A DNA stretch of 64,000 nucleotides from Gemmatimonadota bacterium. GTDB taxonomy: Bacteria > Gemmatimonadota > Gemmatimonadetes > Palauibacterales > Palauibacteraceae. Made by a program: the position numbers and the translations under genes. The notes below the pieces were generated by a model. It did no database searches and was not told where the DNA came from. It was given only the letters and a program-made list of their open reading frames with translations. Location of the stretch: NCBI GenBank assembly GCA_049668445.1, contig JBATJK010000235.1:15714-79713 (forward strand), given 5' to 3'. This document shows, piece by piece, positions 3,618 through 54,776 of the stretch. Each line of letters starts with the position of its first letter. The stretch's first letter is position 1.

Positions 3618-3621
<4 letters not shown>

Positions 3622-24435: not shown

Positions 24436-24466
24436 TACTGGAGACAACCCTTTCCGAGAATGGCCG

Positions 24467-26271: not shown

Positions 26272-27033
26272 TCAGAGGCGTCCGAACAGAGAGCGGAAGC
26301 GCAGGGCCCACACTCTCCACACCGCCTCGCGTACGATGGCTCCCGACATCTTGCTCTCGCCTTCCGTGCGGTCCACGAACACGATGGGTACCTCCCCGAC
26401 GCGGAACCCCTTCTTCCAGGCCCGGAAGTCCATCTCGATCTGGAACGTGTAGCCGGTCGATCCCACCTTCGAGAAGTCGATCGCTTCCAGCACCTCGCGG
26501 CGGAAACACTTGAACCCTGCCGTGGCATCCGACAGGGGGAGTCCTGTCACCACACGGGCGTACTTGTTCGCGAACCAGGACAACAGGAGGCGGCTCATGG
26601 GCCAGTTGATGACGTTGACCCCGCTCACGTAGCGAGAGCCGATCACCAGGTCGAGGTCTCCCTCGGCGGCCTCGAGCAGCGCGGGAAGATACTTCGGGTC
26701 GTGCGAGTGATCCGAGTCCATTTCCAGAAGGAACTCGTATCCGTTCTCCAGGCCCCAGGTGAAACCCCTCAAATAGGCGCTCCCGAGCCCCTGCTTGCCC
26801 TCCCGATGTACCACGTGAACGCGAGGGTTGTCGGACGCCATCAGATCGGCGACTTCACCCGTACCGTCAGGTGACGCGTCGTCCACGACCAGCACGTCGA
26901 TCCTCGGGTCCTGATCCAGCACCACGGGGACGATCGAGGCCAGGTTGCCGGCCTCGTTGTAGGTCGGCATGACGACGAGCGCCCTGCCCCGTCCGATCGG
27001 CTCCGCTCCCGGAACGTTCGGATTCTCGTTCAA
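26272..27033 (-). CDS. GT2 polyprenyl-monophosphate sugar synthase (DPM1/Ppm1-like, soluble type)
   Basis: ALVVMPTYNEAGNL...VLVVDDASPDGT...DSDHSHDP (DxD/ED motifs of DPM synthases). No C-terminal TM helices. Probable TTG start at 27033-27031 overlapping the stop of the upstream gene (TTGA); an internal ATG start (26970) is an alternative. Confidence 0.78.
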   Translation of the reverse strand: MNENPNVPGAEPIGRGRALVVMPTYNEAGNLASIVPVVLDQDPRIDVLVVDDASPDGTGEVADLMASDNPRVHVVHREGKQGLGSAYLRGFTWGLENGYEFLLEMDSDHSHDPKYLPALLEAAEGDLDLVIGSRYVSGVNVINWPMSRLLLSWFANKYARVVTGLPLSDATAGFKCFRREVLEAIDFSKVGSTGYTFQIEMDFRAWKKGFRVGEVPIVFVDRTEGESKMSGAIVREAVWRVWALRFRSLFGRL

Positions 27034-27989
27034 GCCACTCTCTCCTCTTCCTCTACCGTTCTGGGCCAGGCCAGCACCAGAGCCAGCGCGGCGAGTTCGG
27101 TCACCAGCATCCATATCCGGGCCATGATCGCGACCGCAGCCGCCACACCCACCGCCAGCCCCACCAGGTCGGCGAGCAATGCCGTCATCGCGCCCTCGCG
27201 CACGACCAGACCGCCCGGGGCCACCAGCACAAGGTAGCCGACCACATAGCTGGCCGCGAAAATGCCCGTAAGTACCGGCAGATGGCTGACTTCAACTGCG
27301 ATACCGACACCTCGCAAGAGCAGGAAGAGTCCGACCCCATACAGGCACCAGGCCAGGAGCATCCCGGCGGCGGCCCGCACGATGTGTCCCGAGTCCAGCT
27401 CCACCCTCAGGTCGTCTTCTCCGAGCCAGCGGCCAAGCCGACTCGCGACCCAGCGAATCACACGAGGGTGCAATCCCAGCACGAGGATCCCCCCGAGCGT
27501 GATCACGACAGGTACCCAGCTCCCCTCGGCTCCAGCCCACGCGACGCCGATGGTGGATGCGGCGACGGCGCCCCCCGTGACCAGCGTGACAATCTGGAAA
27601 GCCAGCGCGGAGACGAGAGCCGCGGCTCCCGAGTCGCCACGTCCCTTCATGTACGCGGCCAGGCCTCCCAGCTGCCAGACCTTTCCCGGTATGTAACGGC
27701 CGAAGTTGGTGACCACCCAGACTCTGACGGCTTCGGTCCGCCGGACGTTGCCCCCGGTCCCCCTGAAGAGGCTGGCCCAGACACTGCCCATGAGCAGAAG
27801 GTTCGCGACACCAACCACGATCGCCAGCACCAGAAGCCAGGGGCTGAAAGACCAGTCGAAAGCGCGGGTCGCGGCCATGACCTCGTCCAGCGAGGTCCAC
27901 TGCCCTCTCAGCAGCATCCCCACGAAGGTGAGTGCGACGACAAGAAACACCACCGTCACCACGCGACGTGGCTCGCGACCCGAGGTCAC
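27030..27989 (-). CDS. Flippase-like polytopic membrane protein (lysyl-PG-synthase TM-region / TIGR00374-like)
   Basis: ~320 aa, 8 predicted TM helices. GK-rich loop NFGRYIPGKVWQLGGLAAY, typical of the UPF0104 / LPG synthase TM domain. GTG start at 27989-27987 overlapping the YfhO stop (GTGA). Confidence 0.65.
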   Translation of the reverse strand: MTSGREPRRVVTVVFLVVALTFVGMLLRGQWTSLDEVMAATRAFDWSFSPWLLVLAIVVGVANLLLMGSVWASLFRGTGGNVRRTEAVRVWVVTNFGRYIPGKVWQLGGLAAYMKGRGDSGAAALVSALAFQIVTLVTGGAVAASTIGVAWAGAEGSWVPVVITLGGILVLGLHPRVIRWVASRLGRWLGEDDLRVELDSGHIVRAAAGMLLAWCLYGVGLFLLLRGVGIAVEVSHLPVLTGIFAASYVVGYLVLVAPGGLVVREGAMTALLADLVGLAVGVAAAVAIMARIWMLVTELAALALVLAWPRTVEEEERVA

Positions 27990-30316
27990 GATTCCTCCGG
28001 CTCCTTCCCTGACCGGCTCATGCCGGGGAATCGCCAGGGCAAGAACCCGATCAGGAGCCACACGAGAGCGCCGGCCGCCGAGATCCCAGAGACCATGAAC
28101 CCGATCCGGAACTCGGCCGCGGAATAGCGGAAGGTCACCTCGTGAGTGCCCGCCGGCACGACGACGCCCCGGAACGCAGTATTGGTCCGCAGGATCTCGG
28201 TGGGCTGTCCGTCGATTCGGGCCCGCCAGGCCGGATAGTAGACTTCACTGAGAAACAGGAGCCCGGCCTGGCTGGCCTCCACCTGCAGGACGAGCTCGTT
28301 GGGCTCGTATCGCATGATCGTCGCCACCCCCGAGCCCGCCGCCGGAGCCACGTCACCCTCTACGATGGCAAGCTCGAGCGGATCGGCCTCGAGAATCCGG
28401 CGCAGGGCCTCAGCCGTGTCCGGTGTGGCCTCGACTCTTCGCGGGAAGAACGCGTGCGGAACGTCGCCCAGCACCCGGTAAGCCGAGCCTCGCGACCCCG
28501 TAGCCTCCAGAGCGAGAATCTCGGCTGACACGCCTGGCCCGGCCACGATGAAGCCCACATCGAGCAGCCCCAGGGCCGCCACCGTGCCCACGTTCTGCAT
28601 CCCCAATCCGCCCGTGAAGCGCTCGTACCATTCGAGTCGGAACTTCTGGATGCCGGTAACCGTGGGGATTCCATGGACGCTGAGCTCACTGGGCCCGTAG
28701 CCCGCCATTCCCGCCGGAGGGAAGGCCCTCTCGGCCAGGACGAGTTCCGAGCGCAGGTGCTCGATCACCGTATCGGAGGGAAAGACGGTCTCTGGATCCA
28801 CCGTCCGGAGGTAGCGGTCGTTCACGCGCCAGCCATCAGCGACCATGACAAGGAGGAGGAGGGCAACCACCCACTCCGGAGCGCGACGCATTCCCACCCC
28901 CCAGGCCGCGCCCAGGCCGCCTCCGACGCCCAGCAGGAGCATCCAGCCGTTCATCCGGAGCGGTCCCCCTGGATCCGCCGCCGCGGATCGGGTCCAGCCC
29001 ACCGGATACCATGCCGTTCGCACCCAGCGGAGCAGGCCCTCGGGTGAGAAGGCCGCGGCAAGACCGAGAAGGAGCAACGGCGAGGCCAGCAAGAAGACCC
29101 AGACCCACGGGATGCTGCCCACTCCCCTGCGAGCCTCCAGCACCTTCTGCCACCCCAGGCCGGCCAGGAGCGCGATCATGAGGCTCGCGGGACCCAGCAT
29201 CATCGATGGTGCTCGGAATTGCTTGACGAACGGAATGACCGAGTACGCCAGTCGATGCAGCGGCGTGGCCGCGCCCAGGGCGAAGAGAACGCAGGTGAGA
29301 GCGGTAATCGCGACGAAGGTCACCCTGCGATCGCTGCGGATCGCTGTCAGGGCGACGAGGGCCAGGGCCACTGGCACGGCGCCCAGGTACTCGGTGTGGA
29401 GCTTGAACGGGTTGCTTCCCCAATATGTCCCGAGCGATCCGATCAGGTCCGGAAGGATGAGGGCGGAAACCTCCTGCGGGGGAAGCGCCCACGACGATGC
29501 GAAGGCGTAGCCCGACTCCCCTGCCCCACCGCGCACGGCCACGTCCAGGATCTGGACGGTGGGCAGGAGCTGAGCCAACCCGACCAGACCCGCCACCGCG
29601 AAGCCCAGCGCCCACATGCCGACCAGGGGAACCGCTGTTCGCGCCCCCTCGTTCCTGGCTCGCTGCCCGATCCTCATCGCCGCGTACAGCGTGAGAGCGA
29701 GCGAGGAGTAGTACATGAGCTGGATATGGGGCGTAAAGATCTGCAGGGCGATCACGAGGCCAAGGGCGACGAACCACCGAGTGCGGCTCGACTCGAGGCC
29801 CCGTTCGAGACACATGAACGCCAGTGGAATCAGCGCCATCGCGAACATGCGGCCGTCGTGTCCCCCGTACAGTGTCGACACGACGAACCCCGTAAGCATG
29901 AACGCCAATCCGGTCACCGCTGACGGCATGCGCTCCAGTCGAATCGACCGGGCTGCCAGGTAGGCGAAAACACCCGAAAGGAACGTGTGCAATACGAATG
30001 TCCAGCCGATGGCCCGGTGCAGGGGCATGATCAGGTAGAGAAGACTCGTCGGATAGAACACCGGGCCGGGCAGGATCGCGAGGTAGGGTTGTCCCCCATA
30101 CACAAACGGATTCCACAACGGAAACCCTCGGCCGGACCGAATTTCGCCTACTCCGAACGAGCGCAGCTGGAAGCCCTCGTTGATCATGTCGTCGCCGTAC
30201 AGCATCGCGCCGGGATCGAAGATGAACCCGCGGTAGAACACCAGGGTCAGAAATCCGGCGACTGCAGCCGCAATCCATACGAATTGCCGTGTGCTCCAGC
30301 GCCCACCGCCGGTCAT
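27986..30316 (-). CDS. YfhO-family membrane glycosyltransferase (GT-C fold)
   Basis: ~776 aa polytopic. YfhO-like N-terminal region (FYRGFIFDPGAMLYGDDMINEGFQLRSF...FPLWNPFVYGGQPYLAILPG...) and a C-terminal periplasmic domain. ATG at 30316-30314 overlaps the stop of the upstream methyltransferase (ATGA). The longer ORF to 30439 is an over-extension. Confidence 0.72.
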   Translation of the reverse strand: MTGGGRWSTRQFVWIAAAVAGFLTLVFYRGFIFDPGAMLYGDDMINEGFQLRSFGVGEIRSGRGFPLWNPFVYGGQPYLAILPGPVFYPTSLLYLIMPLHRAIGWTFVLHTFLSGVFAYLAARSIRLERMPSAVTGLAFMLTGFVVSTLYGGHDGRMFAMALIPLAFMCLERGLESSRTRWFVALGLVIALQIFTPHIQLMYYSSLALTLYAAMRIGQRARNEGARTAVPLVGMWALGFAVAGLVGLAQLLPTVQILDVAVRGGAGESGYAFASSWALPPQEVSALILPDLIGSLGTYWGSNPFKLHTEYLGAVPVALALVALTAIRSDRRVTFVAITALTCVLFALGAATPLHRLAYSVIPFVKQFRAPSMMLGPASLMIALLAGLGWQKVLEARRGVGSIPWVWVFLLASPLLLLGLAAAFSPEGLLRWVRTAWYPVGWTRSAAADPGGPLRMNGWMLLLGVGGGLGAAWGVGMRRAPEWVVALLLLVMVADGWRVNDRYLRTVDPETVFPSDTVIEHLRSELVLAERAFPPAGMAGYGPSELSVHGIPTVTGIQKFRLEWYERFTGGLGMQNVGTVAALGLLDVGFIVAGPGVSAEILALEATGSRGSAYRVLGDVPHAFFPRRVEATPDTAEALRRILEADPLELAIVEGDVAPAAGSGVATIMRYEPNELVLQVEASQAGLLFLSEVYYPAWRARIDGQPTEILRTNTAFRGVVVPAGTHEVTFRYSAAEFRIGFMVSGISAAGALVWLLIGFLPWRFPGMSRSGKEPEES

Positions 30317-31077
30317 TCGCTGATCTCCAGGGCGTCGGACGGACGTGCCGGCCGCTCGAGGAAGAAGAACCACTGCGGCGATCCGGTTCTGAGGAAGCTC
30401 CGGCGCACCCCAGCAGGCATTCTGCGCATGGCTCCCCACACGGCACCCCAGCGCTCGCCCCAGGCCATGCGGATCAGGTCGTCAATGGCACGCTCTGTCA
30501 CGTCGTGGATGATAAAGCCCGCTGATCGCATGAGTCTCGTCAAGGGTCGATAGGTGAGGAACCGGATGTCGTCGTACGACCGCCCCCGGCGCGTGATGCG
30601 AAGGTAGGCCCCGGCTGACCCCTTCGGTAGCCAACTGAGAAACGGCAGCCGGTAGTGAGGCTCCACGATCGCGAAGCGGCTGCCCGCCGTAACGTAGGCC
30701 CGCCCACCCGGCCTCAGTACCCGATAGGTCTCGCGGAACAGTTCTCCCGCATCGGGAACGTGCTCGTACAGGTGGTTCAACATCACGAAGTCCAGGCTCT
30801 CCGAGGCGAAGGGGATGCGCAGAACATCTCCCCGGACCATGCGTTCCTTCTCGACTATGAATTCGCTGTCTATTTCCAGTCCATATATCGGGTTACCAGA
30901 CTCCACTTCAAGTGCCTTGCGAATAATTCCGGTTCCCGCGCCGAGGTCCGCCGCGCGGGCCGAGCCCGTCAGGTAGGGCGCGCACAGGTGGGCGATGACA
31001 CGGGCCTTTCGGAGGCGTCCCTCCCGATAGGCCTCGGTGGCCGTGAACCTTTCGTATCGATCAGTCCCGGCGCTCAC
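30313..31077 (-). CDS. Class I SAM-dependent methyltransferase
   Basis: Motif I DLGAGTGI; acidic post-I; Methyltransf_11/23-like (VMLNHLYEHVPD...VLRPGGRAYV). GTG start at 31077 is 14 nt after the GT4 stop. The longer ORF to 31191 would overlap GT4 by 130 nt. Confidence 0.72.
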   Translation of the reverse strand: MSAGTDRYERFTATEAYREGRLRKARVIAHLCAPYLTGSARAADLGAGTGIIRKALEVESGNPIYGLEIDSEFIVEKERMVRGDVLRIPFASESLDFVMLNHLYEHVPDAGELFRETYRVLRPGGRAYVTAGSRFAIVEPHYRLPFLSWLPKGSAGAYLRITRRGRSYDDIRFLTYRPLTRLMRSAGFIIHDVTERAIDDLIRMAWGERWGAVWGAMRRMPAGVRRSFLRTGSPQWFFFLERPARPSDALEISE

Positions 31078-32281
31078 GGCGTGCCTCCACGGCGGACGAA
31101 TACACGGCAGTCGTCTCCTCCAGGATTCGCTCCCACGAGAAGCGTGCCTCGGCTCGCCGTTTGCCCTGAGCCGCCACGCGGCGGGCTTCATCCGGATCGG
31201 AGATCACATCGAGAATTCGCCGCGCGAGGACCTCCGAATCCCCTGGATCCGATAACCACCCGGTCTCCCCGTCGATCACGATGTCGGGAATGCCCCCTGC
31301 TCGAGAGGCGACGACGGGGCGCTCATACGCCAGCGCCTCCAGAAGGACGACGCCAAGGCCCTCGGTGTCGCCACGCGAATCCACCACCGCGGGAAGGACG
31401 AAGATGTCCGACTCCGCATACTCCTGCGCGAGCCGCTCCGCCGTCACGAATCCGCGCATGTGGACATGATCCGCGACGCCCTCCAGCGCCGCCGTCCGCC
31501 GCACGCTGTCCTCTCGATTCCCCGAGCCGACGATCACCAGTTCCGCGTCCCGCGTGTGCCGGAGTCTGGCGAGGGCTCGAACCAGCACTTCGACACCTTT
31601 CCTCTCCACGAGCCGGCCGACGAACAGCAGCCGGACGGGATCAGTGGCACTGGAGAGGGCCGGGCGAATGCGGTCCGGTGACACGTCCGGGATCACCGCT
31701 GCATAGGGGACAACGGCCACGGAGCGATCCCACAGGCCCTGTACGGACCTCGCCGTCGAGGTGGAGATGGCCGTCACCGCGTCCGCGGACCGGATGCTCC
31801 ACTCGAGAAACGGACGGAGCCACGGGAGGCGCTGATCTACCCAATTCACCTCCACGCTGTAGAAGCTGCAGACCATCGCGGTCCGTCCCCTCGACGCCCG
31901 GCGCATGGAGGCCCCGAACAGGGCATGCGGCATGGGCCAGTGAACGTGCACCAGATCTGGTCCACCGCGCCCCAGGTCCGCGGCCGCGGCGCACCCTGCC
32001 GCGAGGTAGGACGGCACGAGCGCCGCCGATGCGGGGCGGTCGCGGATCCGATCAGGGACGGCCTGATCGTGTGTGAGTGTTTCCAGGAAACGGGGCGCGT
32101 ACCGGAAACGTCGCACGGGAACGCCTGAGGATTCCTCGTCCGGTCCACCTTTGTACGCGGGCGCCAGGACGCTGGCATCGATTCCAGCCTGGCGCTGACG
32201 TCGGACCAGCTCGACCAGCCAGGGGGTGATCGGATCATCACGATGCCTGGGAAAGGCCGTGGCTACATGAATGACCTTCAT
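31061..32281 (-). CDS. Glycosyltransferase family 4 (retaining, GT-B)
   Basis: 406 aa. N-terminal Glyco_transf_4-like domain (MKVIHVATAFP...) and C-terminal Glycos_transf_1 (EX7E: GDTEGLGVVLLEALAYERPVVASRAGGIPDIV). ATGA overlap with the upstream GT39 gene. Confidence 0.85.
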   Translation of the reverse strand: MKVIHVATAFPRHRDDPITPWLVELVRRQRQAGIDASVLAPAYKGGPDEESSGVPVRRFRYAPRFLETLTHDQAVPDRIRDRPASAALVPSYLAAGCAAAADLGRGGPDLVHVHWPMPHALFGASMRRASRGRTAMVCSFYSVEVNWVDQRLPWLRPFLEWSIRSADAVTAISTSTARSVQGLWDRSVAVVPYAAVIPDVSPDRIRPALSSATDPVRLLFVGRLVERKGVEVLVRALARLRHTRDAELVIVGSGNREDSVRRTAALEGVADHVHMRGFVTAERLAQEYAESDIFVLPAVVDSRGDTEGLGVVLLEALAYERPVVASRAGGIPDIVIDGETGWLSDPGDSEVLARRILDVISDPDEARRVAAQGKRRAEARFSWERILEETTAVYSSAVEARRERRD

Positions 32282-33882
32282 GGTTCGCCGGGCGCTGAAG
32301 CGGTCCGCGGGGCCGATAGCAGACGCAGGAGCGCCGTGCCTTCTTCTCCTCCCACCGTGTGTACGACCTCGAAGCGCTCCAGGTTGGCCGCGATGGCCGG
32401 AATCAGGTACATGGCCGTGGTGGCGCTCAGCCGGTCGACCAGCACGTAGTCCGCCCCCATCTCCTCGAGCCCCCGCAGCACGACGGAAGGATCCTGGGAG
32501 TAGGGATACAGGTCTCCCTGTCGACGAGAAAACAGGTAGAAGGTGGCGGGGCTGCGGTTGGCGATGACCGACCCCTCAGGGGTGTTCTCCGAGGCCCACC
32601 AGCCCATGGCATAGAACTCCCGGTACTGTGGACGGTCACACGGATGACCGTCCCGGTACGCGAACTGGCAGGCTACCCGGTACGACACGACAGATCCTGC
32701 CGAGTACAGGGCCATCGTGGCGACTCCGGCCACGACGAGTCCTATCGTCGCGTACCCGATCCTCCGCCCCATGGATTCGACGCCAGCCGCCGCTCCCGCC
32801 GCGCCGAACACAACGAGGAGTGGCAGGATGGGAAGGAGAAACCGACGGTCGGTCCACACCGGCGGCCACAGCAGGATGAGACCGACGTAGAACGCCACGA
32901 GGAGGTGGGCCACACTCACCCGATTGGCGGCCGACCGAAGCCAGCCGTAAAGGACCAGCGAACTCAAGAAGACTCCGGCGATGGCCGTGCCAGTGACCGT
33001 CGCCCTCCGAACGGTTGGGAACCCGAATGAGCCAGGCAACTCTGAGCTGACGTAGCGCCAGAGGTTCGTCGCCGCCCGCGCCGGAAAGTCCATCAAGCTG
33101 ACGGTTCCAGCGGCCGGGACGTAGGGGTTCTGCTGGATGAGCTGCTGCAGGTAACCCGGCTGCGAGGGCTGGGCCACGTGCTGATAGACGGCCCAACCTG
33201 CGACACAGAAGAGGGCCACCAGCAAGGCCGCCACGGCCCGCCGGCGATCCCGCGACAGGAGGGCCCACACCACCAGGGTGAGAAGCACGGACAGCCCGGC
33301 CGTGCGGGTGAAGAAGGCCGCGGCCGCAGCTGCCAGGGCCGCGGCTCCGACACGTCTGTCTCCCAGGGTGGCCGCGACGACGGCCAACAGGAGGAAAGTG
33401 AACGCCGCTTCGGACAACACCCGGTGGGAGAAATCCAACAGAACCGGCGCCATGGCAAACAGGCCGGCCGCCACGAACGCGGCCCGCTTTCCGACGAGCG
33501 ATTCGGCGATTCGATAGGTCAGCCACACCGAACCCGCGGCGAACGCCATCGAGGCCGCCTTGAACAGCTGCAGGCCACCGAACCAGCCTGCGATCGCCAG
33601 GATCAGGGGGTAGCCAGGCGGGAACTTCGCGTGCAGCGGCGAACCCGGCAGCTGGATGTCCCGGAAGCCCATCCCGCTGCGCAGCGACTCGCCGAGGACC
33701 ATGTAATGGCCCGCATCCGCCCCCGGGAAGAGCGTCGGCTCGAACACCAGTACGGCCAGGAGCACGTGGGCGGCGACGAGCACCGTTGGTGCGAGGATTC
33801 CCTCCGCTCCCGAGAGAGACGCAGCGTCCTCAGCCTTGAGATCCTTAGAGTCGGGCCCTCCGGCGGTGCCCCGGCCGATCAC
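32278..33882 (-). CDS. GT-C glycosyltransferase, family 39/83 type (PMT / ArnT-like; polyprenyl-phosphate-sugar dependent)
   Basis: 534 aa, ~11 TM helices then a ~150-aa C-terminal soluble domain. N-terminal loop with acidic/aromatic residues (HYMVLGESLRSGMGFRDIQLPGSPLHAKFPPGYPLILA), typical of PMT_2/ArnT. ATGA overlap with the GT2 upstream. Confidence 0.72.
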   Translation of the reverse strand: MIGRGTAGGPDSKDLKAEDAASLSGAEGILAPTVLVAAHVLLAVLVFEPTLFPGADAGHYMVLGESLRSGMGFRDIQLPGSPLHAKFPPGYPLILAIAGWFGGLQLFKAASMAFAAGSVWLTYRIAESLVGKRAAFVAAGLFAMAPVLLDFSHRVLSEAAFTFLLLAVVAATLGDRRVGAAALAAAAAAFFTRTAGLSVLLTLVVWALLSRDRRRAVAALLVALFCVAGWAVYQHVAQPSQPGYLQQLIQQNPYVPAAGTVSLMDFPARAATNLWRYVSSELPGSFGFPTVRRATVTGTAIAGVFLSSLVLYGWLRSAANRVSVAHLLVAFYVGLILLWPPVWTDRRFLLPILPLLVVFGAAGAAAGVESMGRRIGYATIGLVVAGVATMALYSAGSVVSYRVACQFAYRDGHPCDRPQYREFYAMGWWASENTPEGSVIANRSPATFYLFSRRQGDLYPYSQDPSVVLRGLEEMGADYVLVDRLSATTAMYLIPAIAANLERFEVVHTVGGEEGTALLRLLSAPRTASAPGEP

Positions 33883-34844
33883 CTTCTGAGCTCTCGGCGG
33901 AGATCCTCCACCTCGGCCCGGAGCCCCGCGATCAGTTCAGCCAGCAAACCTGCCACGAACAGCAAGCCTCCCAGAAGAACCAGAAAGACGACAAGGGTGA
34001 GAAGCGGTCTGAACCCCGTGCCCAACGCGTAGCGCAGAATCAGGGCCACGATTCCAACGAGCACCCCCACTCCAGCCACGAACAGACCGGTGAGTCCGAA
34101 GAAGAGCATCGGTTTGCGGCTGAACACCAGCTGGAACCACACGGAGATCAGGTCGAGCAGCCCGACCACCACCCTGCCCTGCCCGCTGTACTTGGACACG
34201 CCGTGGCGCCTGGGAAGCAGATCGATGTCGATCTCGCCGATCCGAAATCCCCGATCGTGCGCCAGGACAACGAGATAGCGGTGCCAATCCTCGCGGAGGT
34301 GAATCTCGTCCACCACCTCCCGCCGGAACGCCTTCATGGAGTTCAGGTCACGGACCGGCACCCGGAAGATCATGCGTGACAGGCCATTGTAGGCCCCCGA
34401 CACCATGCGCTTCGGGTAGTCTCCCACCTTGCGCCCCACCACCACATCGTGGTCCTCATCCAGCGCATCCAGGAAGCGGGGGATCTCGTCCGTGGCGTGC
34501 TGGAGATCGGCATCGAACAGCACGAATACGGGCGCGTCGGTGGACCTCACGGCCGTCACCAGGGCCGCCGTCTTCCCCCTGTTCACGCGATGTCGCAGGA
34601 AGAGGGTCCGATCCTCGATGCCCGAAGCGCTGGCCGCCGTTCGTGCCGCCTCGAGCGTCCCATCAGTCGAACCGTCGTCGACCAGGACGATTCTACCGTT
34701 CAGCTGAAAGCGTGAGAACGTCCCCGCCAGATCCTGAAACAGATCCGGCATGTTCTCCGCTTCGTTATAGGCCGGAACGATTACCGAGAAGCGTATGGAG
34801 GTCGGCGGGAGGGGGTCGGCGGGAGACAACCCGGACTCGGTCAT
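33879..34844 (-). CDS. GT2 polyprenyl-phosphate sugar synthase, GtrB/ArnC/CsbB type (two C-terminal TM helices)
   Basis: FSVIVPAYNEAENM...IVLVDDGSTDGT...DADLQH (DxD...D). C-terminal TM pair (MLFFGLTGLFVAGVGVLV...LLGGLLFVAGLL). ATG at 34844-34842 overlaps the rpoN stop 34843-34841 (ATGA). Confidence 0.85.
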   Translation of the reverse strand: MTESGLSPADPLPPTSIRFSVIVPAYNEAENMPDLFQDLAGTFSRFQLNGRIVLVDDGSTDGTLEAARTAASASGIEDRTLFLRHRVNRGKTAALVTAVRSTDAPVFVLFDADLQHATDEIPRFLDALDEDHDVVVGRKVGDYPKRMVSGAYNGLSRMIFRVPVRDLNSMKAFRREVVDEIHLREDWHRYLVVLAHDRGFRIGEIDIDLLPRRHGVSKYSGQGRVVVGLLDLISVWFQLVFSRKPMLFFGLTGLFVAGVGVLVGIVALILRYALGTGFRPLLTLVVFLVLLGGLLFVAGLLAELIAGLRAEVEDLRRELRR

Positions 34845-36280
34845 ACTCGCTTACGCATCCTCGCCGAGAGGATTCCGAGTTGATCCCTGTACTTCGCGAC
34901 TGTCCGCCGCGCGATCTGGACGCCCTCCTGCTTCAGGACGTCCACGATGGCCTGGTCGGTCAGGGGTTTCTTCGGATCTTCGTCGGCCACCAGCTTCTGA
35001 ATCCGGGCCCGGATACCCCGGGCGGATACGTCCTCGCCGTAGTCAGTCGACAGCCCGGAGGAGAAGAAGAACTTCAGAGGGAGCACCCCGCGTGGCGTCT
35101 GCACGAACTTGTCGTTCGTCACTCGCGACACGGTGGACTCGTGCATGTCGATGTGCTCCGCCACCTCGCGAAGGGTCAGGGGCCTCAGGTGCTCCACGCC
35201 CTTCTCGAAGAACTCGCGCTGACGGTCTACGATGAAGCCCATGACCTTGAGCATCGTCTGCCGTCGCTGCTCGATCGCCTGGATCATCCACTGAGCGCTG
35301 TTGAGCTTCTTGGAGATGAAGGCCTTGTTCTCTCCCTGGTACTGGTTCCGGTCCTGGGCCACCTCCCGGTAGGATCGCGAGAGCTTGAGGCGCGGCAACG
35401 ACGAGTCGTTGTGAAACACGAAGTACTCGCCATCGACCTTCTCGACCGCCAGGTCGGGAATGACGTAGTTGTCGCTCATGTCCGCGTACTTCAGACCGGG
35501 CTTCGGATCGAGCTTGGCGATCGAATCGGCAGCGCTCTGGACGTCCAGGGGAGAGATCCCGTGTTCCTTGGAAAGCTCGCTCCACCTGTGGTTCACCAGC
35601 TGCTCGAAATGGTCCTGGATGATTCGATAGGCCAGGCTATCGTCTTCCTTCCGCTCCCGCAGCTGGATCAGAAGCGTCTCGCGTAGATTCCGGGCACCGA
35701 CGCCCGAAGGATAGAAGCCCTGAATGACCCGGAGAACCGCTTCCGCCTCCTCGAGCGTGAAGGGCTCCATCTCCGCCCACAGTTCGGGCTCGCTCTCGGC
35801 CAACCACGTGTTGGCCGCTTCGACGACTTCCTCGAGGCTGCAGGCGAGAAACCCCTCGCGATCGATGTTGCCGATGATCTCCTCACCAAGGGCGAACTCA
35901 CGCGGTCCGAGCGTGAGGAGATTGAGCTGCTCGCGCAGGTGCTCCCAGAGATCGGGCGGAGCAGCCGGAGTGGGCATGTAGTGCTCTTTGTCTTCGAACT
36001 GGCTCCGTCTACCGCCTGCATCGAAGCCGTTCAGGAGGATCTCTTCCCAATCGACCTCGTCCTCGTCTTCTTCCTCTTCCTGCTTCTCTTCAGGAAGTTC
36101 CTCTTCCGCCATCTCGGTGAACTCGAGGAACGGATTGACCAGCACCTCCAGCTTCAGGTGCGCCTGCAGGTCCAGCAGAGGCATGTAGAGCAGATCCATC
36201 GCCTGGTAAAGGCGGGGATTGATCTTCAGCTCCTGCCGCATTCCGAGGCTCTGCGAGAGCCCTCGTCTAAAATCCGCCAT
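34841..36280 (-). CDS. rpoN: RNA polymerase sigma-54 factor
   Basis: 479 aa. Q/L-rich region I (MRQELKINPRLYQAMDLL), acidic region II, and C-terminal RpoN box (ARRTVAKYRDQLGI). Downstream of lptB as in most Gram-negatives. Confidence 0.9.
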   Translation of the reverse strand: MADFRRGLSQSLGMRQELKINPRLYQAMDLLYMPLLDLQAHLKLEVLVNPFLEFTEMAEEELPEEKQEEEEDEDEVDWEEILLNGFDAGGRRSQFEDKEHYMPTPAAPPDLWEHLREQLNLLTLGPREFALGEEIIGNIDREGFLACSLEEVVEAANTWLAESEPELWAEMEPFTLEEAEAVLRVIQGFYPSGVGARNLRETLLIQLRERKEDDSLAYRIIQDHFEQLVNHRWSELSKEHGISPLDVQSAADSIAKLDPKPGLKYADMSDNYVIPDLAVEKVDGEYFVFHNDSSLPRLKLSRSYREVAQDRNQYQGENKAFISKKLNSAQWMIQAIEQRRQTMLKVMGFIVDRQREFFEKGVEHLRPLTLREVAEHIDMHESTVSRVTNDKFVQTPRGVLPLKFFFSSGLSTDYGEDVSARGIRARIQKLVADEDPKKPLTDQAIVDVLKQEGVQIARRTVAKYRDQLGILSARMRKRV

Positions 36281-36413
36281 CTGCTACTCGACCACTCCGT
36301 TCAATCCGGTTCTGCGGCCGCACGGGCCGCACGCTGCATGTAAGATAGCGTACGCGGTACACACGGCACACCCCTTGCAGGACGGGCCGAGCGCCGCACC
36401 CCTGGTGTGGAGT

Positions 36414-37145
36414 TTAGAGCTCGAAATCGAGCCCCAGATACATCTTGCGGGCTTCCGGATCGTCAACGAGGGTTTGAGCCGGTCCCTCGATATGAATCTG
36501 GCCGTTGAACATCAGGTAGGCCCGGTCCGTGATCGAGAGAGTCTCGCGCACGTTGTGGTCCGTGATCAGCACGCCGAGGCCACGTTCCCTGAGCTCTGCG
36601 ACGATGCGCTGGATGTCATCCACCGCAATGGGGTCAACGCCGGCGAATGGCTCGTCGAGCAGCATGAACTTGGGGCGAGTGACCAGGGCCCGTGTGATCT
36701 CGAGTCTGCGTCGCTCACCACCTGACAACGAATCCGCCTTGCTCTTCCGCAGGTGGCCGATCGACAACTCGCCGAGCAGCTCGTCCAACCGGCTCTGACG
36801 CTCCGCGCGCGTCATGTCGAGCGTCTGCAGAATGGCCATGACATTCTGCTCGACCGTGAGACGCCGGAAGATCGAGGGCTCCTGGGAGAGGTAGCCGATA
36901 CCAGCTCGGGCACGGCGATACATGGGGACCCTGGTCAGTTCCTGCTGGTCGAGGTACACCCGGCCCGCGTTTGCGCCGAGCAATCCCACGATCATGTAGA
37001 AGGTGGTGGTCTTCCCCGCCCCGTTGGGTCCAAGCAACCCTACGATTTCACCCTGGTGGACCTCGAGGTCGACACCATCCACCACACGCCGTTTGCCGAA
37101 CGCCTTCACCAGCCCCTCGGCCCTCAAGACGCTCCTGGTGCTCAA
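36414..37145 (-). CDS. lptB: LPS export ABC transporter ATP-binding protein LptB
   Basis: Walker [10 protein letters not shown], signature [11 protein letters not shown], Walker B LLDEP. 243 aa. Adjacent to lptA/lptC and rpoN. Confidence 0.9.
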
Positions 37146-38509
37146 CCGCCTTCTCCTTCCGTTGAGGGCTCGAGGTAGATCCCTATGGCATCCCTGGCGA
37201 TCACCTCGGACGGCTCCCCGTCCTCGAACAGCACCTCGATCCGGTTCCCGAGCAGGTAGTTACGGGATGGCTCCTCGGACCGAATGGAATCACGCACGGA
37301 GGCGTAGAACGACCTCGCGCTGCCGAGGGCCATGATACGTTCGGGCTTGGGGTTCGACTCCGCCGGTGCGAGAAGTGAGTCGGCGGGAGCGGGACTGAAG
37401 AAGGCCCGGATCGTGTCCCCCGTGAGCCAGTTCGAACCGGGATCGAGGTCCTTGGCCGCCTCGACCAATGTCTCTCCAGGTATGTGCGGCACGGTCTCCA
37501 CGGAAGAGGCATCTCCCACCGAGGCGATGGAATCGATCCGGCCTGCCGTCAGGAAAAACTCGATCGAGTCACCCGCGAGTTGAAAGCTACCCGAGACAGC
37601 GATCGACCGTCCCTCGCCGAATGCCCACAAGCGCTCGACTTCACCTCCGCTGAACGCGGCCGTCACCAGATCGGACTGGAGCTCGAAGTCCTCGCCGGTC
37701 GCCGCCGCCTCACCGAACGACTCTACCTCTCGAAGCTCGTCGTCGGCGAAGCGAGCCACGACGCTGTCCCCCGTGAGCTCGAATCCCTCCCCCCGAATGA
37801 TCGGGCGCCCGTAAAGGACTCCTACCCCGCTCGCATCGAAGCGCGCACTCTCGGCGGTCGCGTCCAGGTCCGACCTGTGGATCTCGACGTTCCCGCGCGC
37901 GAATGCCTGCTCTTCTCCCTGGAATTCAGCCTCGTCGGCGTCCACGAGGAAGGGCTCCGTCCCCGGCCCGCCGGTCGGCAACTCCATGTGCGGCCTTCCG
38001 GTGGCGATCGTGCGGTTTCCCTGAAACGGAGTGCGCATGAAGTCGACCCGCGGCCCCTCCAGCGTCGCACCGGATCGCAGGCGCTCGAGCCGCACATCAC
38101 CCACCGCGATGACACGGTCGGTCAATCCGTAGTATGTCACCGTGTCCGCATCCAGCACCCGCGTCGTGTCCCTGTAGCGAACACTCCCGATCATCCGGGC
38201 TTCAGAGCGGTGTTCCAGGTGCACCGCGCTATCTCCGGTCATGGAAGCATCGCCACACTGGCCGATGACCAGCCCACCACCAAGGTGCATGGCATAACGG
38301 CCCTCGGAACCGGGGATCGCCAGCATGTTGCTTCTGGGCTGATCAGCGGACCCGGACGCCGCGACCACCCGGACCCTGAGCTGGCAGCTTGGAGCGCCCT
38401 GCGCCTCGGCCGACCCGGGAGCTGCCAGCGCCGCCAGAATGACGAACGCGGAGCCGGCACAGAGAGAACGCATGGACGTGAAACCCGTTGGCTGCAGGCT
38501 CGTGGTCAT
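37142..38509 (-). CDS. lptA: LptA/OstA-family periplasmic LPS transport protein (unusually long, ~440-455 aa)
   Basis: Signal peptide ([24 protein letters not shown]; internal ATG at 38473 is an alternative start). Repeated OstA-like beta-jellyroll segments. Its stop overlaps the lptB start, and ATGA overlaps the lptC stop at 38509. Confidence 0.72.
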
Positions 38510-39102
38510 TCAGGCAGCGTGCGCCGGCCAGCGGTGGGGTCTCCTTCCGACACGAAGCTGGGATTGAGGCTCTGAACGTTCTCGAGCTGCGCGTCGCTGA
38601 CGAAACTGGCCCCCCTCATCTCCAGACCTGGCCGGTACAATACGAAAGCCGTGTCCCCGTAGAGAGAATCCGCCGCCGCGACGTAACGAAGCCTCTCGGT
38701 CACCAGGCGCTTGGACCCCACGGCCTCGGTGACCTCGACCCCGCCTCTGACCTCGACGTCGCCCGTTTCGAACTGGTACTCACCCTCCCGCCCGGTCAGC
38801 ACCCCCTCTTCGAGTCCCGTACTGCCGTAGAACGTAATGACCAGATTGCGCAACTCGAGCAGGCCCTCCTCCTGGAAACTGAAGGCCGTGTCTGCCACCA
38901 GTATCCCATTCCGCACGCCTGCTCTGGTGAGGTTCATCTCGACCCCGACCAGCACCTGATCGGCCTCGAGACCCAGCAACGTGTCCGAGGCCAAGGGCTT
39001 CTGGCTCTCCTTCTCGCAGCCGCCCATTGCCGGAAGACAGATCAGAACGAGGGCAGCCCCGCTCAACCTGGCCCTGGCGGGCCGACTCCATGGCCTGCTC
39101 AC
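38506..39102 (-). CDS. lptC: LptC-like periplasmic LPS transport protein (lipoprotein form)
   Basis: 198 aa. Lipobox LVLICLPAMGGC. LptC-like beta-jellyroll. ATGA overlap with the kdsD stop. Confidence 0.68.
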   Translation of the reverse strand: MSRPWSRPARARLSGAALVLICLPAMGGCEKESQKPLASDTLLGLEADQVLVGVEMNLTRAGVRNGILVADTAFSFQEEGLLELRNLVITFYGSTGLEEGVLTGREGEYQFETGDVEVRGGVEVTEAVGSKRLVTERLRYVAAADSLYGDTAFVLYRPGLEMRGASFVSDAQLENVQSLNPSFVSEGDPTAGRRTLPE

Positions 39103-40094
39103 GTCAATCCGGCCCGCAGCAGGTCGTGCAGGTGGACCATGCCCAGCAATCCGTCGTCGGGTCCCACCACGGGCATCGCCATGATGCCATATTCCTGCAT
39201 CTGAGACAGTGCTCGGGTGGCCATCTCTCCCGGCCCGATCGTCTTCGGAGTCGGGTTCATGGCCCGGTCGACCGAGTGCGAGAGGAAGTCCGCGTGCCCG
39301 TCCGCGTAACGGGTGAGATCGCCCGCCGTGATGACGCCCACGACCCGCGATGCGTCATCGAGAATCGGTACCGTACCCTGCCGGTGCGCGATTTCGTGCA
39401 TGGCGGCAGCGAGATTGCCGTCGGCCGGCAGCCTCGGAACGCGATCATCGTCCGTGACCATCACGTCCCGGACGGTGAGGGTCAGGCGCCGCCCGAGGTC
39501 CCCGCCCGGGTGCAAACGCGCGAAGTCCTCCGGCCCGAATCCCCGCACCTCGGATACCGCCATGGCCAGGGCATCGCCCATGGCCAGCGCGGCCGTGCTG
39601 CTGGCTGTAGGGGCCAGGTCGTGCGGACATGCCTCCACCTGCACGCTGACGTCCAGGACCAGATCCGCCCTGCTCGCGAGCTTCGACTGCGGTTCAGCGG
39701 TCAGCGCGATGACGGGGATGTCCAGCCGCCCGAGAACGGGCATCAGGCTCTCCAGCTCTGCGGACTCTCCGCTCTTCGAGATAGCCAGCAGGAGGTCCCC
39801 CCGGACGAGCATACCGACGTCGCCGTGAGCAGCTTCCACCGGGTGCAGGAAGATCGCCGGTGTGCCGGTGGACGAGAAGGTCGAGGCAAGCTTGCGGGCG
39901 ACGATCCCCGACTTCCCAATACCCGTGACAACGACGCGGCCCGAAATCGATCCTATCGTCTCTACGGCCTTGACGAAGGGCGCTCCGAGGCGTCCCGCCA
40001 TAGACGCCACGCTCTCGCTCTCGATGCGCAGAACCTCACGGCCACGCTCGATGATCCGCGACGCGTGCGTCTGATCGCCGCCGCCGTCACTCAC
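39099..40094 (-). CDS. kdsD: Arabinose-5-phosphate isomerase (KdsD/KpsF; SIS plus tandem CBS)
   Basis: SIS motif VVVTGIGKSGIVARKLASTFSSTGTPAIFLHP..EAAHGDLGM, plus a C-terminal CBS pair. GTG start at 40094-40092, 2 nt after the kdsC stop. The ORF to 40226 is an over-extension. Confidence 0.85.
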   Translation of the reverse strand: MSDGGGDQTHASRIIERGREVLRIESESVASMAGRLGAPFVKAVETIGSISGRVVVTGIGKSGIVARKLASTFSSTGTPAIFLHPVEAAHGDVGMLVRGDLLLAISKSGESAELESLMPVLGRLDIPVIALTAEPQSKLASRADLVLDVSVQVEACPHDLAPTASSTAALAMGDALAMAVSEVRGFGPEDFARLHPGGDLGRRLTLTVRDVMVTDDDRVPRLPADGNLAAAMHEIAHRQGTVPILDDASRVVGVITAGDLTRYADGHADFLSHSVDRAMNPTPKTIGPGEMATRALSQMQEYGIMAMPVVGPDDGLLGMVHLHDLLRAGLT

Positions 40095-40661
40095 TCTTGC
40101 TCGACCTCCAGTGCTCAAAGCACTCAGCAACGTACCCTTCGACGAGCGAATCCCATTCCCCTCGCGCCCTGAGAAGGGCCTCGGTGAACTCTCGAACAGC
40201 ACCCGCCCCCCCACACACGTCACCAACCCAGTCCGCGGCCTCCTTGACCTCGGGCACGGCGTTGGCCACAGCCGCTGGTAGCCCTACCTCACGAAGCACC
40301 GGAAGGTCCGCCAGATCGTCAGCGAGGAATGCCGCCTCGTCCCAACCCGCACCGGCACGTCGAAGGATCCCGTCTACGGTTGCGAGCTTGCCGAACGGTG
40401 AGACCTGGTGGATCTCCTTGATGCCCAGAGTCTCGGCTCGCTTGCGCACGGGCAGCGATACCTTGCCCGAGACGATGGCCACCTCCAGACCCGCCCGACT
40501 GAGCATGTGAATGCCGAGCCCGTCATGCACGTGAAACCGCCGTGCCTCGGTCACCCGATCCTCGTCCGCGGACACGTACAGTCCACCATCGGTCATCACG
40601 CCATCCGCATCCAGGAGGACCACTCGGACCCTGCGACCCTGCTCCGGGGACACGGAACTCA

Positions 40662-40665
<4 letters not shown>
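40087..40665 (-). CDS. kdsC: 3-deoxy-D-manno-octulosonate 8-phosphate phosphatase (HAD)
   Basis: HAD motif I VLLDADGVMTDG. KdsC core (FHVHDGLGIHMLSRAGLEVAIVSG). ATG at 40665 overlaps the kdsA stop (ATGA). The long upstream ORF extension is rejected. Confidence 0.8.
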
Positions 40666-43165
<2,500 letters not shown>

Positions 43166-43361: not shown

Positions 43362-44852
43362 TCAGAGATCCCCCGGGAACCTGAAGATGGCATAGCCTCT
43401 CGCATCGCCCGCGTCGGGATCCCATGCAACGCCCCCTTCGAGAACCCAGAATCGAAGCCCTGCCACGACGTTGACTCGCCAGTCGGCCGACTGCCCCTCC
43501 GCCCAGGCTCGCCCGGTACCCACCCGGGCGAAGACCCCCGGGGCCCCCAGCATACCGGCCGTCAACGCTTCGATCGGAATGGCGTACCCGACGTGCCCGT
43601 ACACCACGCGCGGTCCCCGGAACGCCATCACATCGAAGGTCGGAAGGGTCGCGCGACCGCCGAAGCCGGTCCATCTCTGTCCGGGGAGCGAGCCCGCCAG
43701 ATCACCTCTGACCAGAGCGAAGAGATCCAGCTCGTGGCTCCCGAAGCCAGGCGTAAGCCATCGAGCCGTCACCTCGCCGAGGAGATACGAGAAGTCACCG
43801 GCCAGGGTGGAATCCGCTCCCTCAAGGAGGACCTTCCCCACCAGCAGTCCGTTCTCGCCGGTGCTTCGATCCGCGGAGACGGACAGTGCGGCACTCCACG
43901 CGCTGCCGTCATCGATCGGCGGGTTGTCCCGCACCGTGTCCGACCCGAACAACGTGAAGTGATCCCCTGCCCTTCGACTCCAGGCATCCTCCCATTCCAC
44001 CCGGAACATCGGAGTCCACCACCGCTCCCCACTTCCACGCAGAACGAACGCGACCCGATCGGCACCGTAGTAGTCCCTGAAGTCGTCGCCGAGGAAGAGA
44101 TAGGAGAGTGAATTGGACACGCCTCCCCGGATCCAGTCCTCGTTGGTCCGCGTGATGCGCTCGGCCTCGATACCGAATTCCACGGGACCCGGGTGCCAGA
44201 ACTGACGTACCGTGCCCTCCACCTCGCCCTGCCCGGAGCGGTACCTGCCCACCAGCTCGAGAGTCGGCTGCCACGCCCAGGTCACCGCTCGCAGCGTGAT
44301 ACCCCAGGCCGCGGTCATGGCACTCGAGCGATCGTAGGTGGGAGCCCCAAAGCCGTACAGCCCGTGCAGATCGACGACATCGGGCACGTCCACGACCGGG
44401 TGGATCTCGAAGCCTCCCCCGGATGGCATTACCGTGTAGCGCTCTGCCGGTCGCCACATCACCTCGCCATCCACCGTGGCCATTCCGGATCCGTGATAGC
44501 CACCGCTCAGGACCACGATGTCACCCGACACGTGCGCCCCCGGTCTCAGGAACAGGTCGCCGTCGACGACGTAGATGTCGCCCGCTACCGATCCGGCCAG
44601 CCGTACCTGGGCCTCGAGCACGAGAAGATCGCCGGATACCTGTCCCTCGGAAGAGACGACCGTGTCCCGTGTCCACACCTGCGCGTCCCCGCGCGCCAGG
44701 AAGTCTGCGAGCTTCGAATCGAGGTCGTTGCCTTTCCGGGGCTCGAAAGCGACGTCCTGGGCAACGAGAGGCGGTGCCAGGAGCGCCATCGCCAGGGACA
44801 GCCACAGGGCAGACCGAACCGGGCGGCGACCCGACGCTCGCAGGGCCTTCAC
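43362..44852 (-). CDS. Secreted hypothetical protein: N-terminal beta-helix-like G-D-V/I repeat region plus large C-terminal domain (possible outer-membrane / surface protein)
   Basis: GTG start at 44852 overlapping the nitroreductase stop (GTGA). Signal peptide MKALRASGRRPVRSALWLSLAMALLAPPLVAQD. Repeats SGDLLVLEAQVRLAGSVAGDIYVVDGDLFLRPGAHVSGDIVVLSGG reminiscent of bactofilin/DUF4097-type beta-helices. C-terminal ~330 aa rich in Gly/aromatic alternations. No confident family. Confidence 0.55.
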   Translation of the reverse strand: MKALRASGRRPVRSALWLSLAMALLAPPLVAQDVAFEPRKGNDLDSKLADFLARGDAQVWTRDTVVSSEGQVSGDLLVLEAQVRLAGSVAGDIYVVDGDLFLRPGAHVSGDIVVLSGGYHGSGMATVDGEVMWRPAERYTVMPSGGGFEIHPVVDVPDVVDLHGLYGFGAPTYDRSSAMTAAWGITLRAVTWAWQPTLELVGRYRSGQGEVEGTVRQFWHPGPVEFGIEAERITRTNEDWIRGGVSNSLSYLFLGDDFRDYYGADRVAFVLRGSGERWWTPMFRVEWEDAWSRRAGDHFTLFGSDTVRDNPPIDDGSAWSAALSVSADRSTGENGLLVGKVLLEGADSTLAGDFSYLLGEVTARWLTPGFGSHELDLFALVRGDLAGSLPGQRWTGFGGRATLPTFDVMAFRGPRVVYGHVGYAIPIEALTAGMLGAPGVFARVGTGRAWAEGQSADWRVNVVAGLRFWVLEGGVAWDPDAGDARGYAIFRFPGDL

Positions 44853-54539: not shown

Positions 54540-54566
54540 GTCGGACCACGCTCGGCTGCGGGTCGG

Positions 54567-54749: not shown

Positions 54750-54776
54750 GATACGACTCCCTATCCTTCGTTGCCG

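Follow-up and report, generated by a model that had tools for sequence, protein, structure and literature searches.

The stretch analyzed here (hereafter the window) comprises 64,000 nucleotides (nt) of a bacterium of the phylum Gemmatimonadota (family Palauibacteraceae; assembly GCA_049668445.1, contig JBATJK010000235.1, positions 15,714 to 79,713 of the forward strand). It carries rpoN, the gene for sigma-54, directly followed on the minus strand by a gene for a glycosyltransferase of family 2 (GT2), designated GT2a in the following. The junction between these two genes was analyzed in the window and in related loci, together with the genes on both sides and the intergenic region upstream of rpoN. 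The features of the junction are:

34841..36280, minus strand: rpoN (sigma-54), 479 amino acids, first cistron of a chain of overlapping genes; Pfam domains AID, CBD and DBD, TIGR02395
33879..34844, minus strand: GT2a, predicted polyprenyl-phosphate sugar synthase of the ArnC/GtrB/DPMS type, 321 amino acids; Pfam Glycos_transf_2 and sequence matches in the PDB
34841..34844, minus strand: ATGA stop/start overlap, read directly from the sequence (tcat on the plus strand)

On the minus strand, the 3' end of rpoN reads CGT AAG CGA GTA TGA (R K R V stop). The TGA stop codon occupies positions 34843-34841 and the ATG of GT2a positions 34844-34842, so that the A of the final valine codon GTA forms the start codon together with the TG of the stop codon, resulting in an overlap of 4 nt. 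Co-directional genes with an ATGA overlap, as found here, have the geometry of translationally coupled pairs. In the reading frame of GT2a a TAA is located 9 nt upstream of the ATG (GCG TAA GCG AGT ATG). The next in-frame start codons are a non-conserved TTG at codon 6 and the ATG at 34751 (codon 32), and initiation at the latter would cut off the beginning of the GT2 domain. Furthermore, the gene calls of three public assemblies (Logan, JGI and NCBI) contain an identical GT2a product of 321 amino acids with the same overlap. The upstream TAA, the poor alternative starts and the agreement of the public gene calls thus argue that the start of GT2a has not been mis-called.

The rpoN reading frame encodes a complete sigma-54 with all three parts of its architecture (Sigma54_AID, E 9e-12; CBD, 9e-53; DBD, 6e-64). 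It reaches 434 bits against the TIGR02395 equivalog model, the cutoff of which is 277, and contains the RpoN box ARRTVAKYR in its translation. In GT2a, the Pfam GT2 domain spans residues 20-141, the sequence FDAD contains the DxD motif, and two hydrophobic segments can be recognized by eye at the C-terminus of the translation. Residues 18-312 align to residues 9-302 of ArnC (PDB 9hwj/9bhc/8vxh, E ~2e-23), and full-length matches were also obtained to the archaeal DPMS (5mlz) and to GtrB sll0501 (5ekp, residues 16-312). On the basis of these alignments GT2a is assigned as a polyprenyl-phosphate sugar synthase of the GtrB/ArnC/DPMS type. A specific ArnC orthologue it does not appear to be, with 97 bits against a cutoff of 529 for NF007986, and no other arn genes were identified among the open reading frames (ORFs) of the window that were scanned. 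An earlier note on this DNA, made from the sequence alone, had described the stop of rpoN as overlapping the ATG of a GtrB-like GT2 gene, and had named a mis-called start as one of the observations that would speak against this. Both the overlap and the GtrB-like nature of the downstream gene hold, and so does the start codon, which is backed by the conserved overlap, the upstream TAA and the position of the domain at residue 20.

To assess the conservation of the junction, we used the best 80 of 131 matches from a scan of a genome collection with one genome per species. The matches were solely from Gemmatimonadota, so that the survey covers one phylum, and the identity of their rpoN to that of the window ranges from 98% down to 58%. 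Three of the loci (L004, L009 and L069) are labelled as Gammaproteobacteria, Akkermansiaceae and Thermoanaerobaculia; their rpoN or lpt genes are 90-98% identical to the Gemmatimonadota window. These loci are probably binning contaminants in the respective metagenome-assembled genomes, and all 80 loci seem to belong to the Gemmatimonadota. The 3' end of rpoN is included in 75 of the 80 loci, which form the denominator for all junction counts.

The same GT2 gene directly follows rpoN in all 75 of these loci, and in 72 of them start and stop codon overlap by 4 nt (ATGA in 66, GTGA in 5 and TTGA in 1). In the remaining three loci there is no overlap: L048 and L051 have spacers of 35-68 nt, and in L065 a TTG lies two bases past the stop. 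The stop codon of rpoN is TGA in 75/75 loci, as compared to 81% in the other genes of the cluster. The final codon of rpoN is GTA in 64 loci, GTG in 7, ATA in 2 and GTT and GTC in 1 each, although GTA accounts for only 5.6% of the internal valine codons of the same rpoN genes (8% in the window). We then determined the third-base entropy at 167 conserved four-fold degenerate sites of rpoN in 74 sequences. The mean was 1.40 bits, and that of codon 479 was 0.67 bits; this codon is the only one of the 167 sites at which A is the most common third base. Thus, synonymous sites are saturated across this set of species and selection nevertheless keeps codon 479 on the A that forms the start codon. The junction is conserved beyond chance.

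Among the junctions of the cluster the one between rpoN and GT2a is the most constant. The frequency of 4-nt overlaps is 96% for rpoN/GT2a, 90% for kdsD/lptC, 81% for lptA/lptB, 76% between the gene of a membrane glycosyltransferase of the GT-C superfamily and the following GT4 gene, and 56% for GT2a/GT-C. In contrast, lptB and rpoN are more than 30 nt apart in 54 of 65 loci and overlap solely in a group of Gemmatimonadales loci with about 60% identity, so that rpoN is closer and more steadily joined to GT2a than to lptB. Downstream of GT2a, the gene order varies by clade, and the flippase-like gene and the GT4 gene are shuffled in the 60%-identity loci. The cluster is modular except for the rpoN-GT2a pair, which never separates. 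As regards individual modules, GT2a is directly followed by the GT4 gene in 18 loci where the GT-C gene is missing, and pyrG is directly followed by lptC in 18 loci in which kdsA, kdsC and kdsD are missing from this position. These observations refer to L012, L016-L019, L021, L022, L024-L027, L031, L034, L037, L042, L045, L048 and L051.

The locus was also compared with the rpoN region of E. coli K-12 (b3197-b3206), which has the order kdsD-kdsC-lptC-lptA-lptB-rpoN. The window keeps the order of the genes for 3-deoxy-D-manno-octulosonic acid (Kdo) synthesis, lptC, lptA, lptB and rpoN, and as in E. coli rpoN lies directly downstream of the kds genes and lptC-lptA-lptB. Such a location of rpoN amid genes for lipopolysaccharide (LPS) has been reported for diderm bacteria in general (PMC3162934). 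What differs is the other side. Whereas E. coli rpoN is followed, after a spacer of 22 nt, by hpf-ptsN-rapZ-npr, these genes are replaced in the Gemmatimonadota by a chain of seven glycosylation genes that begins with a 4-nt overlap. Searches by tblastn with E. coli Hpf, PtsN, RapZ and NPr gave no match in the window or within 10 kb of rpoN in the 80 loci, while the controls were positive (rpoN in 81, lptB in 76 and kdsC in 45 subjects). The small ORFs of the window likewise belong to other families and include none of the four genes. A further difference to the E. coli locus is that in the clade of the window rpoN is set apart from lptB by a gap bearing a sigma-54 motif.

The absence of hpf, ptsN, rapZ and npr from the position after rpoN had been proposed in the earlier note and is confirmed by these searches; the survey of downstream neighbors suggested there returned the GT2 gene in every informative relative. 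The description of the arrangement as an unusual wiring of a sigma factor is correct relative to Proteobacteria; within the Gemmatimonadota it does not apply, as the arrangement occurs in all 75 informative loci. The locus represents a variant of the known rpoN neighborhood next to lptB that is shared across the lineage, and the geometry of the coupling is an ordinary one. What is new is the partner, a polyprenyl-phosphate glycosyltransferase that heads a glycosylation chain and is tied to rpoN more tightly than lptB is. No description of rpoN in Gemmatimonadota or of an rpoN-glycosyltransferase context turned up in the literature searched.

The region upstream of rpoN contains the following features:

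36281..36413, minus strand: lptB-rpoN intergenic region, 133 nt, putative regulatory region and 5' untranslated region (UTR) of rpoN
36364..36379, plus strand: sigma-54 -24/-12 motif CGGCACACCCCTTGCA, pointing away from rpoN toward the 3' end of lptB
36342..36347, minus strand (rpoN sense): TATCTT, -10-like hexamer at a distance of 17 nt from the sigma-54 motif, putative -10 element of a housekeeping promoter of rpoN
36314..36330, no strand assigned: GC-rich inverted repeat GCGGCC-N5-GGCCGC in the putative rpoN 5' UTR, from reading of the sequence

Apart from these 133 nt, the 15-gene cluster has no real gap. In relatives, the lptB-rpoN gap measures 90-350 nt in marine clades and is absent or replaced by an overlap in the 60%-identity Gemmatimonadales loci. 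In an alignment of the gap from 21 loci, an invariant block with the sequence TGCAAGGGG[T/C]GTGCC (sense strand of rpoN) is flanked on both sides by sequences that cannot be aligned. On the opposite strand the block reads [C/T]GGCAC[A/G]CCCCTTGCA, which corresponds to the -24/-12 consensus of sigma-54. L018 and L021 carry the perfect form TGGCACGCCCCTTGCA and the window CGGCACACCCCTTGCA, with a spacing of GG and GC that fits the consensus TGGCACG-N4-TTGCW. Within the window alone, TGGCAC-N5-TTGC occurs twice where 3.0 matches are expected, which is of no significance by itself; it is the comparison with the related loci that makes the site meaningful. To this end, the strict pattern GGCAC-N5-TTGC was searched on both strands of the 80 loci (2.57 Mb). 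Of 47 matches, 46 are located within 400 nt upstream of rpoN. A consensus motif in the lptB-rpoN gap that points away from rpoN is present in the window and at the homologous position in L001-L028, L030-L034, L037, L042, L045, L048, L051, L062, L066 and L069. Of the 46 strict matches, 38 point away from rpoN and 8 toward it, and 7 of the 8 that face rpoN sit 9-20 nt before an outward copy in a face-to-face arrangement, whereas L061 has the sense copy alone. The possibility that paired motifs form a terminator hairpin was considered and rejected, as the pairing is imperfect, a U-run is missing and the clade of the window has only one copy. The motif of the window is directed in antisense toward the 3' end of lptB, where no ORF passed the coding filter, which was based on the GC content of third codon positions (GC3). 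A Sigma54_activat domain was not found among the scanned ORFs of the window.

On the rpoN side of the outward motif, 34 of 39 loci have a hexamer of the form TATNNT at a distance of 16-18 nt, and in 4 loci the distance is 30-31 nt. TATCTT would accordingly be the -10 element of a housekeeping promoter of rpoN, and the sigma-54 -24 element would cover the -35 position of this promoter on the opposite strand. Repression by sigma-54 is known for sites that overlap another promoter, and the sigma-54 holoenzyme binds promoters stably without initiating (PMC4591121); in R. leguminosarum, rpoN is negatively autoregulated (PMC3538637). Because of these precedents, the most economical reading of the motif is a negative feedback on rpoN by promoter competition. 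The motif resembles rhizobial rpoN autoregulation and cases of sigma-54 promoter overlap in that a consensus -24/-12 element is located directly upstream of rpoN and across the -35 position of a -10-like hexamer. It differs from them in that the element points outward, that some clades add a sense copy, and that in L013 and L014 it faces a divergent gene pair. Alternatives to autoregulation would be a sigma-54-dependent antisense transcript into lptB and the retention of one half of a divergent promoter. As regards the latter, the outward motif lies in L013 and L014 about 40 nt before a divergent pair encoding a type I phosphodiesterase (Phosphodiest, PF01663) and a VTT/DedA membrane protein.

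Several further observations were made in this region. The divergent pair is inserted between lptB and rpoN in one clade (L013, 7733-9864, minus strand; L014, 1-1416, minus strand), where a second, sense-oriented sigma-54 motif faces rpoN. Clades without the antisense motif (L039, L043, L058-L061) have sense sigma-54-like sequences upstream of rpoN, e.g. TGGCATATATTTTGT and TGGCACGAATATTGT. In L061 a full TGGCACAAGCCTTGCT is located 89 nt before the rpoN ATG and reaches a weight-matrix score of 18.5. These sequences hint at sigma-54-dependent transcription of rpoN in such clades. Except for L061, the scores of the clades without the strict motif were within the background, and the TGGCA[CT]-N5-TTGT sense candidates in L039, L043 and L058-L060 are unconfirmed. 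The GC-rich inverted repeat, finally, may form a hairpin in the RNA or serve as a palindromic binding site for a protein, and close relatives likewise contain a pattern CGGCC-N3-5-GGCCG.

The overlaps do not end with GT2a. In total, rpoN is the first cistron of a chain of eight overlapping genes, the further members of which are:

32278..33882, minus strand: GT-C membrane glycosyltransferase, PMT_2/ArnT-like by the Pfam matches of orthologues, 534 amino acids, GTGA overlap with GT2a
31061..32281, minus strand: GT4 (GT-B) glycosyltransferase, 406 amino acids, ATGA overlap with the GT-C gene; Pfam Glycos_transf_1 (6e-42) and Glyco_transf_4
30313..31077, minus strand: S-adenosylmethionine-dependent methyltransferase, 254 amino acids, GTG start taken from public gene calls, 17-nt overlap with the GT4 gene; Pfam Methyltransf_11
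27986..30316, minus strand: YfhO-like membrane protein, candidate second GT-C enzyme, 776 amino acids, ATGA overlap; Pfam YfhO in the C-terminal part (E 9e-14)
27030..27989, minus strand: LPG_synthase_TM (flippase-like) membrane protein, 319 amino acids, GTGA overlap, start from public gene calls; Pfam PF03706 (E 5e-12)
26272..27033, minus strand: GT2b, GT2 resembling polyprenyl/dolichyl-phosphate hexose transferases; Pfam Glycos_transf_2 (8e-31)

The protein assigned to the GT-C superfamily matches PMT_2 weakly in the window (E 7e-4; 20.3 bits, below the Pfam cutoff of 26.1), and PDB sequence and profile searches with it gave no match. Its assignment is based on the Pfam matches of orthologues, 20 of 25 of which match PMT_2 (best 6e-11), the others matching GT22, GT87, STT3, PMT or GtrII. 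The YfhO-like protein, with a start that is backed by public gene calls, shows a weak match to PgfM1. GT2b may start at TTG 27033, which gives a 4-nt overlap, or at ATG 27114, and its NCBIfam matches (AglJ, DPhHxTase and PpgS) are all below the cutoff.

Taken together, we consider it likely, with a probability of roughly 70%, that rpoN and GT2a are consecutive cistrons of one operon conserved across the Gemmatimonadota, in which GT2a is translated by reinitiation at the head of a glycosylation chain and sigma-54 feeds back on the expression of the unit. According to this proposal, transcription would start in the 133-nt gap at the TATCTT element and one mRNA would cover rpoN and all genes up to GT2b; read-through from lptB might contribute to it. 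Ribosomes that finish sigma-54 would reinitiate on GT2a by termination-reinitiation, for which a conserved Shine-Dalgarno site is not needed, and the same kind of overlap would carry translation on through the genes for the GT-C enzyme, the GT4 enzyme, the methyltransferase, the YfhO-like protein, the flippase-like protein and GT2b. As the overlaps continue to GT2b, rpoN would be the lead cistron of all eight genes. Huber et al. (2019) tested 14 ATGA pairs and observed strict coupling in 13 of them, while the part played by the Shine-Dalgarno sequence differed between genes (PMC6728339). The rpoN/GT2a pair has the same 4-nt stop/start geometry as those pairs. ATGA-type pairs often encode subunits of one complex, according to a further report (PMC10666635); in contrast to such pairs, rpoN and GT2a encode a sigma factor and a membrane enzyme without a known physical relationship.

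From the family assignments, the chain would constitute an extracytoplasmic glycosylation route that depends on a lipid carrier. On the cytoplasmic side of the membrane, a sugar would be attached to polyprenyl phosphate by GT2a and GT2b. The flippase-like protein would then translocate the loaded carrier, from which the GT-C and YfhO-like enzymes would pass the sugar on to an acceptor in the envelope. This acceptor is most plausibly LPS, because of the adjacent kds, lpt and lpx genes. Bound to the antisense -24/-12 element, the sigma-54 holoenzyme could compete with the housekeeping polymerase and thereby feed back on rpoN as well as on the glycosylation genes.

Several points weigh against this proposal. 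We infer co-transcription, translational coupling and autoregulation from comparative evidence. Since 11 of the 14 junctions in the gene cluster of the window have the form ATGA, GTGA or TTGA, such overlaps are the norm there, and the ATGA form of the rpoN/GT2a junction alone is not beyond chance and no sign of a special tie between sigma-54 and glycosylation. A GAGGA sequence 13 nt upstream of the GT2a ATG in the window could back some independent initiation, and promoters without sequence conservation may be present. The sigma-54 motif is limited to clades with an rpoN at least ~75% identical to that of the window and, with regard to autoregulation, it points away from rpoN. Intragenic sigma-54 sites of E. 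coli do not act as roadblocks (PMC4591121). Finally, none of the glycosyltransferases of the cluster reaches an NCBIfam equivalog cutoff. On the other hand, the GAGGA sequence is not conserved among relatives, and a conserved Shine-Dalgarno site before the GT2a start was not seen in the aligned rpoN 3' ends.

A more far-reaching version of the proposal is a self-regulated, sigma-54-led operon for envelope glycosylation. Here, the sigma-54 holoenzyme would bind the antisense -24/-12 element across the -35 position of the rpoN promoter, the synthesis of GT2a would be restricted to ribosomes coming directly from the completion of sigma-54, and a single loop would set both the level of sigma-54 and the capacity for glycosylation of the envelope, probably of LPS. 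We put this forward tentatively and regard it as rather unlikely in its full form.

The main rival to a relationship between sigma-54 and glycosylation is a neutral packing of the operon, to which we give a low probability as well. It holds that a glycosylation cluster replaced hpf-ptsN in an ancestor of the Gemmatimonadota and has been frozen there, the overlap reflecting the dense packing of GC-rich genes without any functional link. The overlap would have been kept because loss of the ATG means loss of an essential start, and not for a fixed ratio of sigma-54 to GT2a. The frequency of overlaps at the other junctions of the window is as expected from such packing, the kdsD/lptC and lptA/lptB junctions are well conserved too, and overlapping gene pairs are abundant in prokaryotes (PMC6728339). 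Packing by itself does not account for the fact that rpoN-GT2a alone never breaks, whereas 18 loci lack the GT-C gene, 18 lack the kds genes, and the flippase-like and GT4 genes are arranged differently in the 60%-identity loci. Moreover, this explanation overlaps with the operon proposed here, as translation is coupled in either case.

Internal promoters are common in long operons, and the glycosylation genes might thus form a separate unit transcribed from within rpoN, with GT2a made mostly from transcripts without a complete rpoN and the overlap being incidental. A promoter in the 3' end of rpoN and a terminator between the two genes had been named beforehand as observations that would separate them, and both were looked for. 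A scan for the sigma-70 consensus from 30 to 44 kb gave 1 site versus 1.4 expected, located inside GT2a, which is at chance level; the scan is not conclusive for this phylum, since the promoter type of Gemmatimonadota has not been established. Around the 3' end of rpoN, sliding windows of eight four-fold sites gave 1.38-1.47 bits and thus no reduced variation against the mean of the gene, and the synonymous positions of the last 30 codons vary freely save for the final one. As the synonymous variation there equals the gene mean, no conserved nucleotide-level element appears to be embedded in this part of rpoN. The strict sigma-54 motif does not occur inside rpoN or the glycosyltransferase genes of any locus, no terminator was found at the rpoN/GT2a junction (the weak terminator-like matches between 30 and 44 kb all lie within coding sequence), and Rfam at a permissive threshold gave no match from 25 to 44 kb. 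We therefore regard a separate transcription unit as quite improbable. Even less credible, to the point that we hardly consider it, is a true start of GT2a further downstream, which would abolish the overlap. The TTG at codon 6 in the window would be a candidate, but it is not found in the relatives, where GT2a begins with an overlapping ATG, GTG or TTG in 72/75 loci, at the cost of a rare codon at the end of rpoN. The GT2 domain and the ArnC alignment begin at residues 20 and 18, respectively, L013 has just 10 residues before the conserved core, and the three independent gene calls share the overlapping start.

The two-step logic of a GT2 synthase paired with a GT-C transferase is known from ArnC/ArnT, GtrB/GtrC with GtrA, CsbB/YfhO and PgfS/PgfM1 of S. 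mutans. As in those systems, the predicted partners of GT2a comprise a PMT_2-type GT-C protein, a YfhO-like protein and a flippase-like protein, and the alignments of GT2a to ArnC, GtrB and DPMS extend over the entire protein with its C-terminal membrane segments, with a weak match to PgfS in addition. Unlike those systems, the cluster combines two GT2s and two GT-C-like proteins with a GT4 enzyme and a methyltransferase, and no equivalog cutoff is reached. To our knowledge, none of the known GT2/GT-C systems is headed by a sigma factor gene.

In diderm bacteria, the neighborhood of rpoN is among the most conserved around any regulator, which has been argued to show that sigma-54 governs the exterior of the cell (PMC3162934). 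The Gemmatimonadota locus fits this link between sigma-54 and the cell exterior as proposed by Francke et al. (PMC3162934). The phylum keeps the LPS-transport half of the neighborhood, and the half containing hpf and the PTS-Ntr genes is swapped for a putative lipid-carrier glycosylation pathway, the first enzyme of which is tied to rpoN more tightly than rpoN is to lptB. A self-regulated operon, if true, would embody this link in a direct, physical way. The locus also offers a testable case, as one synonymous change from GTA to GTC should uncouple the sigma factor from the envelope pathway, and with the conserved upstream sigma-54 site there is a candidate for an autoregulatory circuit in a phylum for which regulatory genetics hardly exists. 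Should the arrangement merely reflect operon packing, it would still provide a useful annotation rule for Gemmatimonadota genomes.

Upstream of the intergenic region, the cluster continues as a chain of overlapping genes, identified by gene calls and profile matches:

36414..43159, minus strand: upstream overlapping chain, pyrG to lptB
41480..43159, minus strand: pyrG
40662..41483, minus strand: kdsA
40087..40665, minus strand: kdsC
39099..40094, minus strand: kdsD
38506..39102, minus strand: lptC
37142..38509, minus strand: gene at the position of lptA
36414..37145, minus strand: lptB

The gene at the lptA position encodes 455 amino acids as compared to 185 in E. coli LptA and had no Pfam or NCBIfam family match; its position is conserved across the loci. 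For the GT4 enzyme the best NCBIfam match is the bacillithiol synthesis protein BshA, an assignment that was rejected at 122 bits versus a cutoff of 274. A clear BshC homologue is located 18 kb from the GT4 gene (11214-12842, plus strand). Two long ORFs at 43362-44891 (minus strand, 509 amino acids) and 54084-55367 (plus strand, 427 amino acids) have a coding-like GC3 and no Pfam match. Two VTT/DedA genes are present in the window at 24341-25138 and 46350-46991. The region 99-16647 on the plus strand is rich in envelope genes, with a C-terminal fragment of BamA, Skp/OmpH, LpxD, LpxA, a Gfo/Idh/MocA oxidoreductase, LpxB, LpxK and MurJ; given this content (BamA fragment, Skp, Lpx, MurJ), the organism very probably makes LPS.

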